64,000 nt of DNA from a virus: the IMG/VR virus record IMGVR_UViG_3300050160_000070; one strand, 5' to 3'. This document shows positions 2,917-12,604 of this stretch, piece after piece. The position numbers and the translations under genes were made by a program. The stretch's first letter is position 1. Each line of letters opens with the position of its first letter. Under the pieces are notes generated by a model. It did not search any database and was not told the DNA's origin. It worked only from the letters and a program-made list of their open reading frames with translations.

Positions 2917-3255
2917 GTGGTATTCGATGACCTGGACGACTTTGACATTGATGGGTATAATAGTGCTGGTGTGCACAGCTCCCACTATTACAACCGCAAT
3001 GGAACGCGTCGGGACAACGACTACGACGACAACTACTGCTACGAACCGTCTCCGCCGGTCGTACCCAAGCCCGTTGCCCCTGCAGTACAACCTCAGTACG
3101 TATTCATGAACAAATGGGAGCTGATCACCTCCACAGAAGTTCAGCATGCAATTTGCATGGCTCTGGCTGCCAAAGATCGGCAGATTCGTGAATACCAAGA
3201 TGAAATCCTTCAACTGCACGAGAAGATCAATCGTGCTCAAACCGCACTGGAGTGA
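2917..3255 (+). CDS. hypothetical protein (C-terminal coiled coil)
   Basis: GTG after GGAG; operon packing. Confidence 0.7.
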   Translation: MVFDDLDDFDIDGYNSAGVHSSHYYNRNGTRRDNDYDDNYCYEPSPPVVPKPVAPAVQPQYVFMNKWELITSTEVQHAICMALAAKDRQIREYQDEILQLHEKINRAQTALE

Positions 3256-4196
3256 CTCAAATGCAAGTAAAGCGAGTTGATTCGTCTGATGAGAATGTCA
3301 GCAAGTATGTGTACGATTTCGGCAACGCTGTTGCCGAATCGGTACTGTACAAATATCCGACGTACGAAGAACGTACGGTGATCTGTTGTTCCACACAAAG
3401 CGGCTGTCCGGTTGGCTGCCGATTCTGCGGAGCAGGCGACAATTTCGTTCGCAGCCTCACTGCTGACGAAATTGTGGCTCAGGTGCAGTATCTGTTCACC
3501 GATCGCAACATCGACCCTGCCCAAGTGAAGAAGGGTCAGATCATGTTCATGAGCATGGGCGAGCCGATGCTGAACAAGAATGGTCTGGAGGGTGCTCTGC
3601 GCAAGTTGCATCAGCTGTATCCGAATTTTGCGTTGCTGATCAGCACCAGCGGTCCTGCTGTTTCGTACTCGTGGCTGATCGAACTGTCGCAAGAGATCCC
3701 CACGATCGGCTTGCAGTTCTCTGTTCACGAGAGCACTGATGAGGCTCGCAACAAACTGATTCCGTTTGAGAACAAGTTGTCGCTGAAACAACTGTCCACA
3801 GTGGGTACGGTGTGGTCGACCAACGTTGGTCGACAAGCATTCTTCAACTACTGCGCTCACGAAGGGAATACCAGCGAGGCTGATGCAGATCGACTGCTTG
3901 AGCTGTTCGATCCGCGTTGGTGGCAAGCCACGGTCAGCGTGATCTGTGAACGCGACGAAAGCATCGCCGCTGCCAATCGCCGCCAGCGCGAACTCGCAAC
4001 CAACTTCATGTCCCTCTTGCTGGAACGTGGTTTCAGTGTGCGGTGTTTTGACCCTGCTGGTCAAGACGACATTGGTGGTGGCTGTGGCCAGCTGTGGTAT
4101 GTCCAGGATTGGATGAAGAACCATTCTGATCTGGCTCGTCCGAGCATTGGCCGCCTCAGTGGCATCCCGGTTGTGCATGCTCCCAGGGAAGGATGA
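3252..4196 (+). CDS. rlmN: RlmN-like radical-SAM RNA methyltransferase (lacks N-terminal domain)
   Basis: VICCSTQSGCPVGCRFC (CX3CX2C plus upstream Cys), FMSMGEPMLN and C-terminal DIGGGCGQL: both catalytic cysteines of RlmN/Cfr appear present. Confidence 0.85.
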   Translation: MTQMQVKRVDSSDENVSKYVYDFGNAVAESVLYKYPTYEERTVICCSTQSGCPVGCRFCGAGDNFVRSLTADEIVAQVQYLFTDRNIDPAQVKKGQIMFMSMGEPMLNKNGLEGALRKLHQLYPNFALLISTSGPAVSYSWLIELSQEIPTIGLQFSVHESTDEARNKLIPFENKLSLKQLSTVGTVWSTNVGRQAFFNYCAHEGNTSEADADRLLELFDPRWWQATVSVICERDESIAAANRRQRELATNFMSLLLERGFSVRCFDPAGQDDIGGGCGQLWYVQDWMKNHSDLARPSIGRLSGIPVVHAPREG

Positions 4197-5404: not shown

Positions 5405-7699
5405 ATGCTCGTTGCACAAGACGACATCCATCTGGAACGCGGAAACACTGGCGCAGAAGCTGGTTTCACGATCAAGGCCACTGCAAAGGCGTTTGACATT
5501 CTGTCGAGTGGTCTATATGCCAACAAGATCCTGGCGATCATCCGTGAGCTGTCGTGCAACGCCCATGACAGCCACGTTGCTGCAGGCACCACTCAGCCGA
5601 TTGAAATTCGTCTGCCGACCACGCTCGATCCCACGTTCTACGTCAAAGACTTTGGCACTGGCCTGAGTGACTTCGACGTGCGTGGCTATTGGTTGCGCGA
5701 TGACGGCACCAAAGTGTCCCTGGAAGAAGGTGCCGAGCAAAGTCTGATCTCCGGCATGGGTGGCTGGGAGAAGAAGGGTGGCATCTACAACACGTACTTC
5801 GAGTCGACCAAAACCTCAAGTAACGACTTCATCGGCCAACTGGGTCTCGGTAGCAAGTCTCCGTTCAGCTACACCACGTCGTTCATGGTTGAGTCGCGTC
5901 ACCAAGGGATCCGATCTCTCTACACGTGCTTCAAGAACGAACAAGGAATGCCGAGCGTTGCCCTGATGGGCACTGAGCCGACGGAAGATCCGAACGGCGT
6001 CACCGTTTCCCTTTCCGTTCGTCCGTCCGATTCCGACAAGTTTGTTGATGCAGCGCGGAAAGCGCTGATGTACTTCGATCCGAAACCGGTGGTGATCGGC
6101 CCGTACGGATTCTCTCCATACTCGCTGGTTCATACTGTGACGGGCGATTCGTGGCGCATTCGCTCCACTGACTACTATGCGGACATGAATGGCCCGCACG
6201 TGGTGCAGGGCTTTGTGTCGTATCCTATCGACACCTACCAACTGCAGCAGTATGGTCTCAAAGATGAAGCTGCCCTGCTGGCAAATACCGACCTCGATCT
6301 GTATGTGCCAATCGGCAAGGTTGAGGTTGCTGCATCCCGTGAATCGCTGTCGTACGTGCCAGCAACGGTGACCAACCTGATCAACCACCTGCAGCAGGCC
6401 GCCCAAGAAATGCGTTCGTCGTTCCAGTCCGAATTTGACAAATGCAAGAATATGTGGGAGGCGATGATGCTGCGTCAGCAGTATACATTCCGCAAAGGCA
6501 CCTTCTCCGACATCTTCAAAAAGATGCAGGATACTGCCCCGTTTCAGTACAACGACCGCGTGGTTCCTGATGAACTGACTCTGGACCTCAGCAAATTGAC
6601 TGAAGTCCGTCTTGTGCGGATGGGCCTCGAGCGTACACGTAGAAGTGGCTACAAACAACACACTCTGGGTGTTTGGGATCCGAGCAATCTCACCAAAAAG
6701 ATGGAGTTCAGTGTTCACGCCAACCTGCATCTGATCGTCGACGATGTTGGCTCTGGCAACGTGTCCAAGCGCGTTACTGAGTATCTGATCAAGCAGGGCG
6801 AGGTGAATGGCAAGCGTGCACAAGCACTGCTGATCGGTTCACACACCAAGCGTGGCCCTGTAGATGACAAGCAAGCCCAACTTGTTGTTGACCAATTTGA
6901 AGGGATCGATCTCACCTACGTTTCCGAACTGCCTCAAGTTGTGACGGTTCGTAGTAGCCGTACGTACACCAAGCGTGAGCCAGGCGAAGTGTACGTGTGG
7001 ACTGGGTTCACCAAGAAGCACAACTACTACGGCCGTGAGACTGGTCTCCATCGCAAGTTCAGTCGCAATACGTGGGACACGGAAGTGATCGACTTCGAAG
7101 ACGGTGGCATTTATGTACCGATTGTTCGGTACGCTGCTCAGAAGGATGGTTATGAGTTCAACGGTATCCATGAGTTGTGGGAATCTGCACGGGCTCTCGG
7201 TCTAGTCTCAGTCGACCAAAAGTTGTATGGACTCAACGACAAAGACCTGAAGAAGATTCAAGATGATGCAGAGTGGGTAGACGTGTATACGTACGTCCGA
7301 GATGCATTTGACGACGCCAACGTTGACGATCGGCTGTTCGCTAAGAACATCGTGGACTCTGTTTCTGACCAACTTGGTCGCCCTCTGATCAACTACATGG
7401 TCAAGAACTGGGACAGTCTGAGCACAGGGTTGCAAGATGGTCCGTTCAAAGAACTCATGGCTGAGATTGTTCAGCTTGCTGGCGACGCGACTGTCAATCA
7501 CCCCGCTGAGCACATTCGCCAAGTGATTGCACAGTTGAGGATTGCAGATGGTGATCGTGTGATGCGTCACGTCACCCTAACCAGTAAGTGGCAGAGCGTG
7601 GTTGACCACTATCCAATGCTCACGTTCGTCAACTTCAAATATGCTGACGATATGCAGATCCGGAAGATCATCAAGTACGTTAACGCGATTGACGGTTGA
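5405..7699 (+). CDS. rIIA: rIIA-like protein (N-terminal GHKL/HATPase domain)
   Basis: AFDILSSGLYANKILAIIRELSCNAHDSH, DFGTGLS and GQLGLGSKSPFSY motifs; 764 aa; directly upstream of rIIB. Confidence 0.9.
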   Translation: MLVAQDDIHLERGNTGAEAGFTIKATAKAFDILSSGLYANKILAIIRELSCNAHDSHVAAGTTQPIEIRLPTTLDPTFYVKDFGTGLSDFDVRGYWLRDDGTKVSLEEGAEQSLISGMGGWEKKGGIYNTYFESTKTSSNDFIGQLGLGSKSPFSYTTSFMVESRHQGIRSLYTCFKNEQGMPSVALMGTEPTEDPNGVTVSLSVRPSDSDKFVDAARKALMYFDPKPVVIGPYGFSPYSLVHTVTGDSWRIRSTDYYADMNGPHVVQGFVSYPIDTYQLQQYGLKDEAALLANTDLDLYVPIGKVEVAASRESLSYVPATVTNLINHLQQAAQEMRSSFQSEFDKCKNMWEAMMLRQQYTFRKGTFSDIFKKMQDTAPFQYNDRVVPDELTLDLSKLTEVRLVRMGLERTRRSGYKQHTLGVWDPSNLTKKMEFSVHANLHLIVDDVGSGNVSKRVTEYLIKQGEVNGKRAQALLIGSHTKRGPVDDKQAQLVVDQFEGIDLTYVSELPQVVTVRSSRTYTKREPGEVYVWTGFTKKHNYYGRETGLHRKFSRNTWDTEVIDFEDGGIYVPIVRYAAQKDGYEFNGIHELWESARALGLVSVDQKLYGLNDKDLKKIQDDAEWVDVYTYVRDAFDDANVDDRLFAKNIVDSVSDQLGRPLINYMVKNWDSLSTGLQDGPFKELMAEIVQLAGDATVNHPAEHIRQVIAQLRIADGDRVMRHVTLTSKWQSVVDHYPMLTFVNFKYADDMQIRKIIKYVNAIDG

Positions 7700-7758
7700 T
7701 CGATCATGGGTAAGTGGATATACTTACCCCATTCATTTTTGAAAAAGGTAACGACATA

Positions 7759-9003
7759 ATGAACAGTTACATTCTGACTCGTGACGGGGCTGCCCTGGTG
7801 ATCAACGGCAAGCAGTTCACACTGAACGATCAACATCCGAACTTCGCATTGGTGCTGGACAAGGTCCGCGCCAAGCAATGGGCAGACATCCCTGACCTAA
7901 TCAACGTGTCCTTGGCACTCTCCAAGATGGCCAACGGTCTGATCACTGTGGACACGGAAGCTGCTGCTGTCTACTTCCGTGGTCAGCCGATCCACAACAC
8001 CGCCGTCGATCACATGATCGCAATGATGCGTGACGGCTTCGATGTGGAACCAATGTCGAACTTCCTGGGCAACCTGTACCAGAATCCGAACCCGAAGACG
8101 ATTCAGGCGGTGTATGGTTGGATGCAAGCGAACAACGTCACGATCACAGAAGATGGCTGCCTGATCGCATACAAACGCGTCCGCAGCGATTACCTGTCGT
8201 TCTACGATGGAGCAACCAAACATGCGATCGGTCAAGTTACGTCGATTGCCCGGGAGCAGTGTGACCAAGCCAACGAGAACACGTGTTCGTCTGGTCTGCA
8301 CTTCTGTTCGCACGCCTACCTGCCCCACTACTACAACGGCGAGGGCCGTGTGCTGATCCTGAAGATCAACCCCGCACACATCACTGCAATTCCGACTGAC
8401 TACAACTTCGCCAAGGGCCGTACCTGCTCGTATGAGGTGATTGGTGAGCTGGACGGTGAAGCGCGCCAACTGATCGAACGTGAAGCTGTGATTACCACTC
8501 CGGTGATGACCGAACAAACGAACGCAAGTGCCACTCAAGCGTTCAAGACCGGCTACCAAGCTGGTTACAAGGATGGTCGTGGCAAGCAGGCGTTCGGTAA
8601 GTCGGTGAATGCAGACTTGTGGGCTGATTCTGAAGAGTACAAACAAGGTTACCGCGAAGGTCGCGACGATGGTCGCAAGAAGCTGCCGAAAAAGTACGGT
8701 GACGGCACTGGTACTCCGGATATTCAACTAGGCACTGCTCCTGCTGCGAACAACATCATTCCCACTCCGCTCTTGGATCGTGCACGCTTCATCACCAGCG
8801 ACATGATGGGTGTTCCCGTTAGCCAAATCAATGAAGCCACTGCGTTCGTGGCTGACCTCGGCGCAGATTCTCTCGATCTGGTTGAACTGGTGATGTACTT
8901 CGAGGACGATTTCGGCATCGAAATCTCTGACGAAGATGCTGAACGCTGTGTGACTGTTGGTGATGTGTGTCAAATGCTGCTCAGCCGCGGCATTGGAGGC
9001 TAA
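7759..9003 (+). CDS. rIIB: rIIB-like protein with C-terminal acyl carrier protein domain
   Basis: [46 protein letters not shown] (rIIB); in-frame [30 protein letters not shown] (ACP, Ppant Ser at 8869-8871). Confidence 0.88.
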
Positions 9004-10043: not shown

Positions 10044-10457
10044 ATGAATACATCGAAGGTAGTCGTCAAACGATCAAAGATTCACGGTCGTGGATTGTTT
10101 GCTGTCGCAGACATCAATCGTGGCAATGTGATCGGATACTACACAGGGCCGCTGTTGACACAACAACAAGTCGCACACTCTTCAAGTGACTGTGTGTATC
10201 TGTGGCAGCTGTCCAATGGGCTGTACATCGATGGGAAGAATGACCTGCGGTACTGCAACCATTCGTGCGATCCTAACGCACACAGCGAAGAAGTGACGCG
10301 TGGCGGTCAGTTGGCAATCATCTTTCGTGCCAGACGACAAATTCTGGCTGGAGAAGAGGTGTACATCGAGTACAACTTGCTGAATGCGGAGCCTGGTGAT
10401 TTGCAGTTGTGTCATTGCGGATCTCCCAAATGTCGCGGGACGATGTTGGCTGAGTAG
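10044..10457 (+). CDS. SET-domain protein lysine methyltransferase with post-SET
   Basis: SKIHGRGLFA, RYCNHSCDPN, GEEVYIEY, CHCGSPKCRG. Confidence 0.9.
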   Translation: MNTSKVVVKRSKIHGRGLFAVADINRGNVIGYYTGPLLTQQQVAHSSSDCVYLWQLSNGLYIDGKNDLRYCNHSCDPNAHSEEVTRGGQLAIIFRARRQILAGEEVYIEYNLLNAEPGDLQLCHCGSPKCRGTMLAE

Positions 10458-10526: not shown

Positions 10527-11426
10527 ATGAGTTCTTCTATCAAGGCTGCCCTAACTGCCAATGCTTCGATTGCAGTTGCCAAAACGATCGGGGCGTTCTT
10601 CACTGGTTCTGCGTCAATGGCCGCTGAAGCCATTCACAGTGCTGCTGACTGTGGCAACCAACTGTTGCTGATGTGGGGCTTCAAGTCGTCTGACCGCGAT
10701 GCTGACACCAATCACCCACTTGGTTACGGCAAAAATGCCTACTTCTGGTCATTCATCGTGGCTCTCGTGCTGTTCACGCTTGGTGGCGTGTACTCAGCAT
10801 ATGAGGGACTGCACAAGATGGCGCACCCCGAACCTCTGAAGTTCGTGGGTTGGGCGGTGGCGATCCTGGCATTCGGCTTTGTGATGGAGCTGCGCTCATT
10901 CCGCATCTGCGTTGCAGAGATTCGTGAGCGACATCCTGGCAAGTCGCTGTGGTGGTGTTTCCGAGAAACGCGTGAGCCTGAACTGTTGATCATCTTCGGT
11001 GAAGACCTGGCAGCTCTGATTGGCCTTGGTCTTGCTGCTGTGTTCCTGCTGATTGCGGCTGCAACCGGGAACCCTTGGTGGGATGCACTCGGCTCCGTTG
11101 TTGTTGGTGTTCTCCTGATGGTTGTTGCAGGTTTCCTGTTCATGGAAACGAAGGCGTTGTTGATCGGCCAAAGTGTCGATCCTCAAACTCGCCGAACGCT
11201 TCGCCAGCTGTTGGTGGACAGTGATCTGATTGAGCATACCTATCAGATGATCACAATGCAAATGGGTCGCGATGCTGTTCTGTTGTTGCGCGTTCGAATG
11301 CGAGAACGTGACCACGTCGAACAACTGCTGGCTGACATCAATGAGCTCGAACGCCAAATCATCACTGAACTGCCTCAGTTCACAGAGATTTTCATCGAGC
11401 CGGACAACCAATTCGTCGACTTTTAA
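10527..11426 (+). CDS. cation diffusion facilitator (CDF) family transporter
   Basis: SASMAAEAIHSAADCGNQ, GYGKNAYFWS, EDLAAL, DALGS; about 6 TM segments plus cytoplasmic C-terminal domain. Confidence 0.88.
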   Translation: MSSSIKAALTANASIAVAKTIGAFFTGSASMAAEAIHSAADCGNQLLLMWGFKSSDRDADTNHPLGYGKNAYFWSFIVALVLFTLGGVYSAYEGLHKMAHPEPLKFVGWAVAILAFGFVMELRSFRICVAEIRERHPGKSLWWCFRETREPELLIIFGEDLAALIGLGLAAVFLLIAAATGNPWWDALGSVVVGVLLMVVAGFLFMETKALLIGQSVDPQTRRTLRQLLVDSDLIEHTYQMITMQMGRDAVLLLRVRMRERDHVEQLLADINELERQIITELPQFTEIFIEPDNQFVDF

Positions 11427-11521: not shown

Positions 11522-12604
11522 ATGACCAAGTTCGTGCGCGACAATGAGAATTTCTACGTTTCGTCGCAATCTCCAGAGAATCTGCTGGATCGCCTGCCTG
11601 CTGGCAACTACACCATCGGCAAGAACCCGATGACTGGTCAGCTGTTCCTGCAACGAGTCGACTCGTTCAAGCAACCCGGCAAGCTGTACGGCAATGTGAT
11701 GGCTCGCGCACAGCGGATCATGAACACGTTCGACGATCGTCCTGGCACCACTGGCGTGCTGCTGAACGGCGAGAAGGGCAGTGGCAAGACCCAACTGGCT
11801 CGCGTGATCAGCCTGGAAGCTGAAAAGATCGGCATGCCGACCATCATCATCAACGGCCCGTGGACCGGCGATGCGTTCAACGCCCTGCTGCAGTCGATCG
11901 ACCAGCCGTGCGTCGTGTTCCTGGACGAGTTCGAAAAGGTGTACGACAACGACGACCAAGAGGCTGTGCTGACGCTGCTGGACGGCACGTTCACCAGCAA
12001 GAAGCTGTTCCTGTTCACCGTGAACGACAAGTACAAGGTCAACCAGCACATGCGCAACCGCCCTGGCCGCATCTTCTACATGCTGGACTTCTATGGCCTG
12101 TCGACCGACTTCATCGTCGAGTACTGCAACGACACGCTCAACAACAAGGACCACATCACCGCGATCACCCGCGTTGCGATGCTGTTTGAACAGTTTAACT
12201 TCGACATGCTGAAGGCGCTGGTGGAGGAACTGAACCGCTACGGTGAGGATCCGTACACCGCTCTGGAGATGCTGAACGCCAAGCCGACCAACCGTGACGG
12301 CGGTACGTACGACATCAAGCTGAAGCACGAAGGCAAGGACATCGAGTCGTTCTACCCGGACCACTGGGATTCCAGCCCGCTGACCCATCGTCAGCCGACC
12401 TTCAGCCTGACTCATTACATCTCCAATCCGGATCCGGATGTGGACGACGAAGAGAAGCACGCTGAATTCAAGCTGACCGATCTGAAGAAGATCGACGCTG
12501 ACGCTGGCACGTACGAATTCGTCAACGAACGCGGTGACGTGGCTGTGTTCACTCGCCGCAAGGTGAAGGAATTCAGCTACCGCGACCTGGACTACGCGTT
12601 CTGA
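11522..12604 (+). CDS. AAA+ ATPase
   Basis: Walker A GEKGSGKT, Walker B VVFLDEFEK, RPGR arginine-finger region. Confidence 0.9.
   Translation: MTKFVRDNENFYVSSQSPENLLDRLPAGNYTIGKNPMTGQLFLQRVDSFKQPGKLYGNVMARAQRIMNTFDDRPGTTGVLLNGEKGSGKTQLARVISLEAEKIGMPTIIINGPWTGDAFNALLQSIDQPCVVFLDEFEKVYDNDDQEAVLTLLDGTFTSKKLFLFTVNDKYKVNQHMRNRPGRIFYMLDFYGLSTDFIVEYCNDTLNNKDHITAITRVAMLFEQFNFDMLKALVEELNRYGEDPYTALEMLNAKPTNRDGGTYDIKLKHEGKDIESFYPDHWDSSPLTHRQPTFSLTHYISNPDPDVDDEEKHAEFKLTDLKKIDADAGTYEFVNERGDVAVFTRRKVKEFSYRDLDYAF

Follow-up and report, generated by a model that had tools for sequence, protein, structure and literature searches.

rIIA and rIIB are the textbook pair of phage genes that defeat host suicide defences. 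Older literature describes the T4 rII proteins as membrane-associated, and on Rex hosts the T4 rII phenotype varies with the ionic environment. Current papers treat rIIA and rIIB simply as a counter to RexAB and do not explain the mechanism, while RIIB has been found to be toxic in E. coli and to trigger a CARD/gasdermin system of Lysobacter (bioRxiv 10.1101/2023.05.28.542683). Here we describe a rIIB gene that lies in a 64,000-nucleotide stretch of viral DNA (hereafter the window) taken from IMG/VR record IMGVR_UViG_3300050160_000070, a 174,565-bp contig of an uncultured giant phage, put by CheckV at about 50% complete. Its product continues, over a flexible tether, into an acyl carrier protein (ACP) domain of the AcpP type. 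The first-pass annotation, made from the letters of the window, had proposed this fusion and knew of no described one, and our search of the literature likewise found no paper on a rIIB-ACP fusion. By every feature testable in silico the protein belongs to both families, and among rIIB proteins its architecture is a new one.

The gene is a single open reading frame (ORF) on the plus strand, from 7759 to 9003, that translates without a stop to 414 residues and ends in TAA at 9001-9003; we fixed the ATG at 7759 as its start because the N-terminus, MNS(F/Y)I, is conserved among relatives. The order of parts read in the first pass, a rIIB core, two GY repeats, a Pro/Ala linker and an intact ACP with a DSL serine, is borne out by translation, profile matches and an AlphaFold2 model. 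The core (residues 1-240; 7759-8478) is mixed alpha/beta and matches PHROG 609 'RIIB' over residues 4-236 at E 6.1e-62, with four further rIIB PHROGs also matching. It is followed by a helical hairpin made of the GY repeats (residues 256-312; 8524-8694; net charge +5), by a flexible linker rich in Gly, Thr, Pro and Ala (residues 313-335; 8695-8763), and by a four-helix ACP domain (residues 336-409; 8764-8985; net charge -13). The phosphopantetheine-attachment serine of its DSLD motif, Ser371, is encoded by the TCT codon at 8869-8871. PHROG 609, PF00550 and NF002148 are all matched on this one chain, and a 100%-identical fragment (P0002) carries the precomputed Pfam pair PF26926 (Phage_T4_rIIB) and PF00550.

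The fusion is confirmed far beyond chance and is no assembly artefact. Stand-alone ACP genes do occur in about 60 cultured phage records, and an error of assembly or sequencing might join such a gene to a separate rIIB gene, or the ACP might be translated separately; we consider either course exceedingly improbable. The exact 414-residue protein is encoded on 12 JGI contigs, the longest of 204,883 bp, and a 58% identical relative (P0003) on 8 contigs. A 96-kb ENA contig (L082) is syntenic with the window over about 20 kb, with a rIIA at 52% and a rIIB-ACP at 58% identity, and the latter has the same uninterrupted frame. Counting L082, 23 full-length homologues of the same architecture, at 33-58% identity, have uninterrupted frames. 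Direct reading of the linker finds no in-frame stop and no purine-rich Shine-Dalgarno sequence with a start codon for a complete separate ACP, in agreement with the first pass; the first methionine inside the ACP domain, M349, falls within helix I. Unannotated metagenome proteins of this architecture are present in public collections, some of them under the automatic name 'acyl carrier protein'.

Among the 23 fused proteins the core has a mean pairwise identity of 60%; the hairpin follows at 51%, then the ACP at 42% and, far lower, the linker at 18%. The difference between the ACP and the linker indicates that the ACP is under purifying selection while the tether drifts freely. In G+C content the ACP part (0.536) matches the window as a whole (0.538), so it is no recent capture.

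The ACP assignment itself is consistent across profiles and structure. Residues 346-407 match PF00550 (PP-binding) at 46.6 bits against a cut-off of 20.8, and residues 339-409 match NCBIfam NF002148 'acyl carrier protein' at 78.6 bits against 71; TIGR00517 falls slightly under its cut-off (68.9 against 70.45), and residues 339-406 match the phage ACP family phrog_5934 at E 2.9e-18. The domain is 52% identical to the Aquifex aeolicus ACP 2ehs (E 1.9e-17) and 41% identical to E. coli AcpP chains. The full-length AlphaFold2 model, built on an alignment of 27 relatives, has a mean predicted local distance difference test score (pLDDT) of 87.9, and in it residues 340-409 form a four-helix bundle at pLDDT 92-97, with the serine of D370-S371-L372-D373 at the start of helix II (371-385). 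Foldseek places the bundle on solved ACPs with TM-scores of 0.87-0.92 and root-mean-square deviations (rmsd) of 0.7-1.2 Å, and VIA aligns 76 of 76 residues to 4ihf_G (Z 13.8, rmsd 2.1).

The same modelling suggests how the domain is held. Linker residues 317-331 are predicted to be disordered (pLDDT below 50), for a tether of about 20 residues. Folded alone, the rIIB core with its hairpin reaches pLDDT 94.6 and a predicted template modelling score (pTM) of 0.87; the pTM of the full chain is 0.66, which points to no confident packing of the ACP on the rest of the protein. An independent, tethered ACP domain would fit this model. A complex prediction of the rIIB core and hairpin (residues 1-315) with the protein's own ACP (residues 333-414), run twice and without controls, gave an ipSAE of 0.00 both times and speaks neither for nor against docking in cis.

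How often rIIB and ACP have been joined can be judged from the wider family. A profile-free exhaustive search of 1.84 billion cluster representatives returned 1,795 rIIB relatives at E <= 1e-30, and all fetched proteins were scanned with a hidden Markov model (HMM) of the fused ACP, which revealed further fusions. The survey of rIIB homologues suggested in the first pass now stands at 31 ACP carriers among the 257 cores sampled, and the family holds at least that many. Since an ACP raises the bit score of a match, ACP-bearing proteins are over-represented among the matches listed; this bias leaves the count of independent events untouched. On a tree of the 257 rIIB cores, with ACP columns excluded, parsimony counts 16 changes of ACP state, at least six of them forced by starred branches, and a 120-row IQ-TREE tree gives eight changes with at least five forced. 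These trees do not distinguish gain from loss. A tree of the ACP domains (43 sequences, 80 columns) is not resolved, with two starred branches, and does not tell a single capture from several.

The fused state also varies in form and is bounded sharply. In P0259, a metagenome protein of 492 residues, the ACP (143-216, DSLD) lies N-terminal to the rIIB core (249-489), in the order HTH-like (helix-turn-helix-like) N-terminus, Ala/Pro linker, ACP, Pro/Val/Ala linker and core. The non-fused P0024, which stands beside P0009, and P0030 are nested among fused proteins and end at 'PK(L/A)Y', the very point from which fused proteins continue into their tether. No ACP ORF was found within 6-10 kb of any ACP-less rIIB (160 loci). 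When the six-frame ORFs of 165 loci with 6-10 kb flanks were searched with an HMM, ACPs turned up only in the fused genes L001, L082 and L088, apart from two remote sites in the DNA of other giant phages. Neighbouring genes thus show no trace of being a source or a decay product of the fusion. As a cultured model of the split state we considered Xanthomonas phage PhiXhv-15 and rejected it, as its ACP is flanked by genes of unknown function and not by rIIB. A homologue search restricted to the ACP gave 128 candidates and no new phage architecture of note. Among 2,786 cultured-phage records with a rIIB match, none covers at least 80% of the 414-residue query, from which we take it that none has the fused form; no near-identical DNA was found in cultured phages.

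Within the ACP, the helix-II face, which all known partners of AcpP touch, is kept more strictly than the cofactor site. D370, D373, E376, E382 and D383, which correspond to D35, D38, E41, E47 and E48 of E. coli AcpP, are invariant in all 23 fused proteins, and E384 and F385 are nearly so. Ser371 is kept in 20 of the 23 aligned proteins and in 27 of the 32 fused domains examined, among them the additional fusions P0132, P0142, P0146, P0173 and P0246. It is replaced by Glu in P0026, P0040 and P0218 (DELD) and by Asp in P0032, all four with the acidic helix II intact; in P0219 the ACP domain is degenerate. A similar substitution occurs in a related, complete 350-kb IMG/VR phage (G002) whose rIIB is ACP-less, in an unrelated 252-residue protein (L163:1012-1767, plus strand) with an uncharacterised N-terminal part and a C-terminal ACP-like domain that reads TDELD, and a 452-kb relative has a free ACP of 81 residues with MDSLD. 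With Asp or Glu in place of the serine, such domains cannot be phosphopantetheinylated. These acidic substitutions are tolerated, and they keep a negative charge where the phosphodiester would sit.

In the window protein, the serine and all residues that AcpS requires are present, and host AcpS, for which the domain looks to be a competent substrate, probably converts it to the holo form. In E. coli ACP, the changes D35N, E41A and E47A/E48A abolish modification by AcpS in vivo, and production in E. coli led to modification of most type II ACPs whose helix II is conserved (bioRxiv 10.1101/2025.01.28.635281). The first-pass annotation found no phosphopantetheinyl transferase (PPTase) in the window, and the same holds for the whole 174,565-bp contig, where PF01648, which covers AcpS- and Sfp-type PPTases, has no match. 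Nor does the contig match PF00109 (ketosynthase), PF01553 (PlsC-type acyltransferase) or PF00501 (adenylating enzymes), and the PP-binding domain of rIIB-ACP is its only one. Whatever modifies or uses the domain must therefore be supplied by the host, or be encoded in the half of the genome that the contig does not cover. Pfam and NCBIfam recognise nothing beyond PP-binding in the ACP's own chain that could act on it, so there is no catalytic domain in cis (KS, AT, A, C or TE) of the kind that would mark a type I FAS/PKS/NRPS-like megasynthase.

We favour, at a probability of roughly 45%, the reading that the ACP domain is a host-modified, tethered look-alike of AcpP that docks rII onto a host AcpP-binding protein, and is not a biosynthetic acyl carrier. 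Host AcpS would convert the domain to the holo form, and instead of serving a phage pathway as an acyl carrier, the domain would use its invariant acidic helix-II face to dock onto a host protein, possibly a membrane complex, that is normally bound by AcpP. Docking might bring the rIIA/rIIB machinery to that partner, or might occupy the partner's ACP site. We prefer this role because the docking face is kept more strictly than the cofactor site, because acidic substitutions of the serine are tolerated, and because no ACP enzyme is present in cis or elsewhere among the phage genes seen. The first pass had suggested either coupling to host lipid metabolism or recruitment of ACP-binding host proteins, and the pattern of conservation favours the latter over a metabolic carrier role; for SpoT and MukB as specific targets there is no support. 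The structural matches of the domain include non-catalytic ACP subunits, namely those of MukBEF (9gm6), NFS1-ISD11 (5wkp), complex I (6zk9), MmpS5L5-AcpM (9rfu), EmbA-EmbB-AcpM2 (7bvc) and Ycf2-FtsHi (8xqx). Complex I, MmpS5L5-AcpM, EmbA-EmbB-AcpM2 and Ycf2-FtsHi are membrane complexes, an analogy that is suggestive for a membrane-associated rII.

Several observations weigh against docking. The serine is retained in most of the fused domains, including that of the window protein, as a true carrier would show, and direct reading shows an unbroken hydrophobic core, which in AcpP holds the acyl chains. AcpS, or enzymes of fatty acid synthesis (FAS), could be the sole reason for the invariance of helix II. 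With half of the genome missing, a PPTase or an ACP-using enzyme could sit in the remainder. Close relatives also do without the ACP: P0030 branches among the fused proteins, and its 150-kb record is without any PP-binding domain.

The first rival is a true carrier, modified by AcpS and loaded by the host type II FAS, in which the acyl-ACP state would matter: it could target rIIB to membrane-bound acyl-ACP enzymes, serve as a readout of lipid synthesis, or pass on an acyl group. Besides the serine and the full DSLD motif, such a carrier could claim the invariance of all AcpS determinants, the 41-52% identity to housekeeping AcpPs and the close fit to acyl-ACP structures (rmsd 0.7-1.2 Å), the long and poorly conserved tether, which resembles the swinging arms of carrier domains, and the membrane association of T4 rII. 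We nevertheless think it rather unlikely, since at least four lineages have exchanged the serine for Asp or Glu and yet keep the domain, and the contig has no acyltransferase, ketosynthase or adenylating enzyme, nor the chain a catalytic domain in cis. A quite different possibility is that an arms race keeps the rIIB C-terminus changing quickly, as a slot in which the ACP is one of many interchangeable tails, without specific ties to ACP biology, that might mask rIIB from host sensors or merely be tolerated. rIIB tails beyond the core do run from 1 to 377 residues (median 112), most without a recognisable domain and, in the long ones examined, without any other Pfam domain; the ACP has been gained or lost at least six times while the ACP-less sisters keep a collinear rIIA, and RIIB is itself what the Lysobacter system senses (bioRxiv 10.1101/2023.05.28.542683). 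However, rIIB lineages far from one another bear the same domain, which also occurs in a different order, and a mask or passenger would not need docking residues that stay invariant over 33-58% identity, so that this explanation strikes us as quite improbable. It is also conceivable that the acidic ACP (-13) folds back onto the basic GY hairpin (+5) or the core, as an autoinhibitory or solubilising lid for a protein whose expression is toxic in E. coli; the charges are opposite, and the flexible tether is long enough. Yet ACP-less relatives carry the same hairpin without a lid, and the drop in pTM on going from the core to the full chain offers no confident packing to set beside the charges. 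No core or hairpin position specific to ACP-bearing rIIBs survives inspection once phylogeny is considered, and at the top-ranked columns the window protein sides with the ACP-less proteins; we regard such a lid as highly doubtful.

The docking reading may extend beyond the fused proteins. The union of rIIB with an AcpP-type domain has come about more than once and in more than one order, and for that reason rIIB as a class, T4 RIIB included, may work through host AcpP or through a complex that contains or binds it, and in phages that lack the fusion rIIB would engage free host AcpP. This generalisation is speculative, and we think it unlikely to hold as it stands, but if it were true, ACP would be the host link that the rII/Rex problem has lacked for 70 years. 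Even for the fused proteins themselves, a recurrent covalent link to a well-understood host protein turns the question of rII action into a concrete, testable hypothesis. The partners of ACP, its modification chemistry and its interaction face are already mapped, and simple separation-of-function mutants are therefore possible.

In the rIIB core, H26, C176, H181, C183 and C223 are invariant across the family and could form a metal site. Foldseek finds no match to the core in the PDB at E <= 1e-3, which is not evidence for a new fold. The best VIA match, a weak one at Z 5.5, is the rifampin ADP-ribosyltransferase (ART) Arr (9iaf_A), and further VIA rows at Z 3.3-4.3 over residues of about 100-240 (8056-8478) comprise PARP13/10/15, Scabin, TreX, RhsP2, pertussis S1, EcPltA and CNFy domain 4. 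As a weak lead from these model comparisons, rIIB may derive from an ART-like fold.

Between core and tether, the two GY repeats, [13 protein letters not shown] and [14 protein letters not shown], form a two-helix hairpin in the AlphaFold2 model (helices 260-274 and 285-306, pLDDT above 90). The hairpin is shared with ACP-less relatives whose chains stop right after it, and GY-type repeats occur in 125 of 258 rIIB tails. Two independent signals, both weak, liken it to ribosome modulation factor (RMF), with the Pfam RMF family at E 0.62 and with RMF on the 70S ribosome (4v8g_AV) at VIA Z 4.1 over 49 residues.

The rIIA gene (5405-7699, plus strand, 764 residues; PHROG 612 'RIIA' over its full length, E 7.4e-115) lies directly 5' of rIIB-ACP in the same orientation, with a gap of 59 bp, and L082 shares this order. 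Its product is collinear with the rIIA of the ACP-fused L082 (52%) and with those of L002 (42%) and L004 (37%), both of them ACP-less; we had considered that rIIA might co-vary with the presence of the ACP, and rejected this, as rIIA is collinear in both states. A consensus scan finds a promoter-like site, TTGATC-17-TATACT (7696-7729, plus strand), in the gap between the two genes, with its -10 box in the loop of a 9-bp hairpin, and rIIB-ACP may have its own promoter. A PADLOC scan of rIIA and rIIB-ACP returned nothing.

Further genes flank the pair. Upstream of rIIA is a radical SAM protein (3252-4196; PF04055, E 7e-8) with a counterpart at 76% identity in L082. Some 1-1.5 kb 3' of rIIB stand a SET-domain protein (10044-10457; PF00856, E 2e-18) and a cation-diffusion-facilitator transporter (10527-11426; PF01545, E 6.5e-37), neither of which has a counterpart in L082, and beyond them an AAA ATPase (11522-12604; PF00004, E 9e-9). 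A phage cation efflux pump close to rII is curious, given that the T4 rII phenotype depends on the ionic milieu.

Set against described systems, the window protein shares with T4 RIIB (PF26926; PHROG 609) a homologous core, a position directly 3' of a rIIA homologue and a home in a large phage of virulent type; it differs in the C-terminal AcpP-type ACP on its flexible tether. With AcpP itself (E. coli 1acp and 1l0h; A. aeolicus 2ehs) it has in common the four-helix fold, the DSLD serine, the acidic helix II and the AcpS determinants, but here these belong to a domain of a 414-residue phage protein and not to a free protein of 8-9 kDa, and no FAS genes were matched on the contig. The stand-alone phage ACPs of PHROG 5934, found for example in Xanthomonas phage PhiXhv-15, Prochlorococcus phage P-HM2, Ralstonia phage phiRSL1 and Vi01-like phages, fall into the same PHROG and are up to 45-49% identical. 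They are, however, separate small genes, and that of the Vi01-like phage phiSH19 lies about 76 kb from rIIA/rIIB; for one phage ACP, a preprint predicts a contact with host FabZ. The serine-less ACP-like domains of phages display the same helix-II face, whereas the window protein keeps its serine. rIIB-ACP enlarges the still growing group of ACPs and ACP-like proteins of phages that have no explained role. A further likeness is to the non-catalytic ACP complexes, MukBEF-AcpP, NFS1-ISD11-ACP, complex I SDAP, MmpS5L5-AcpM and EmbA-EmbB-AcpM2, in which an AcpP-type protein serves as a docking or structural piece, a functional analogy to the role we propose. In those complexes the ACP is a separate chain held non-covalently, while in rIIB-ACP it is tethered covalently to the protein that it may serve to dock.

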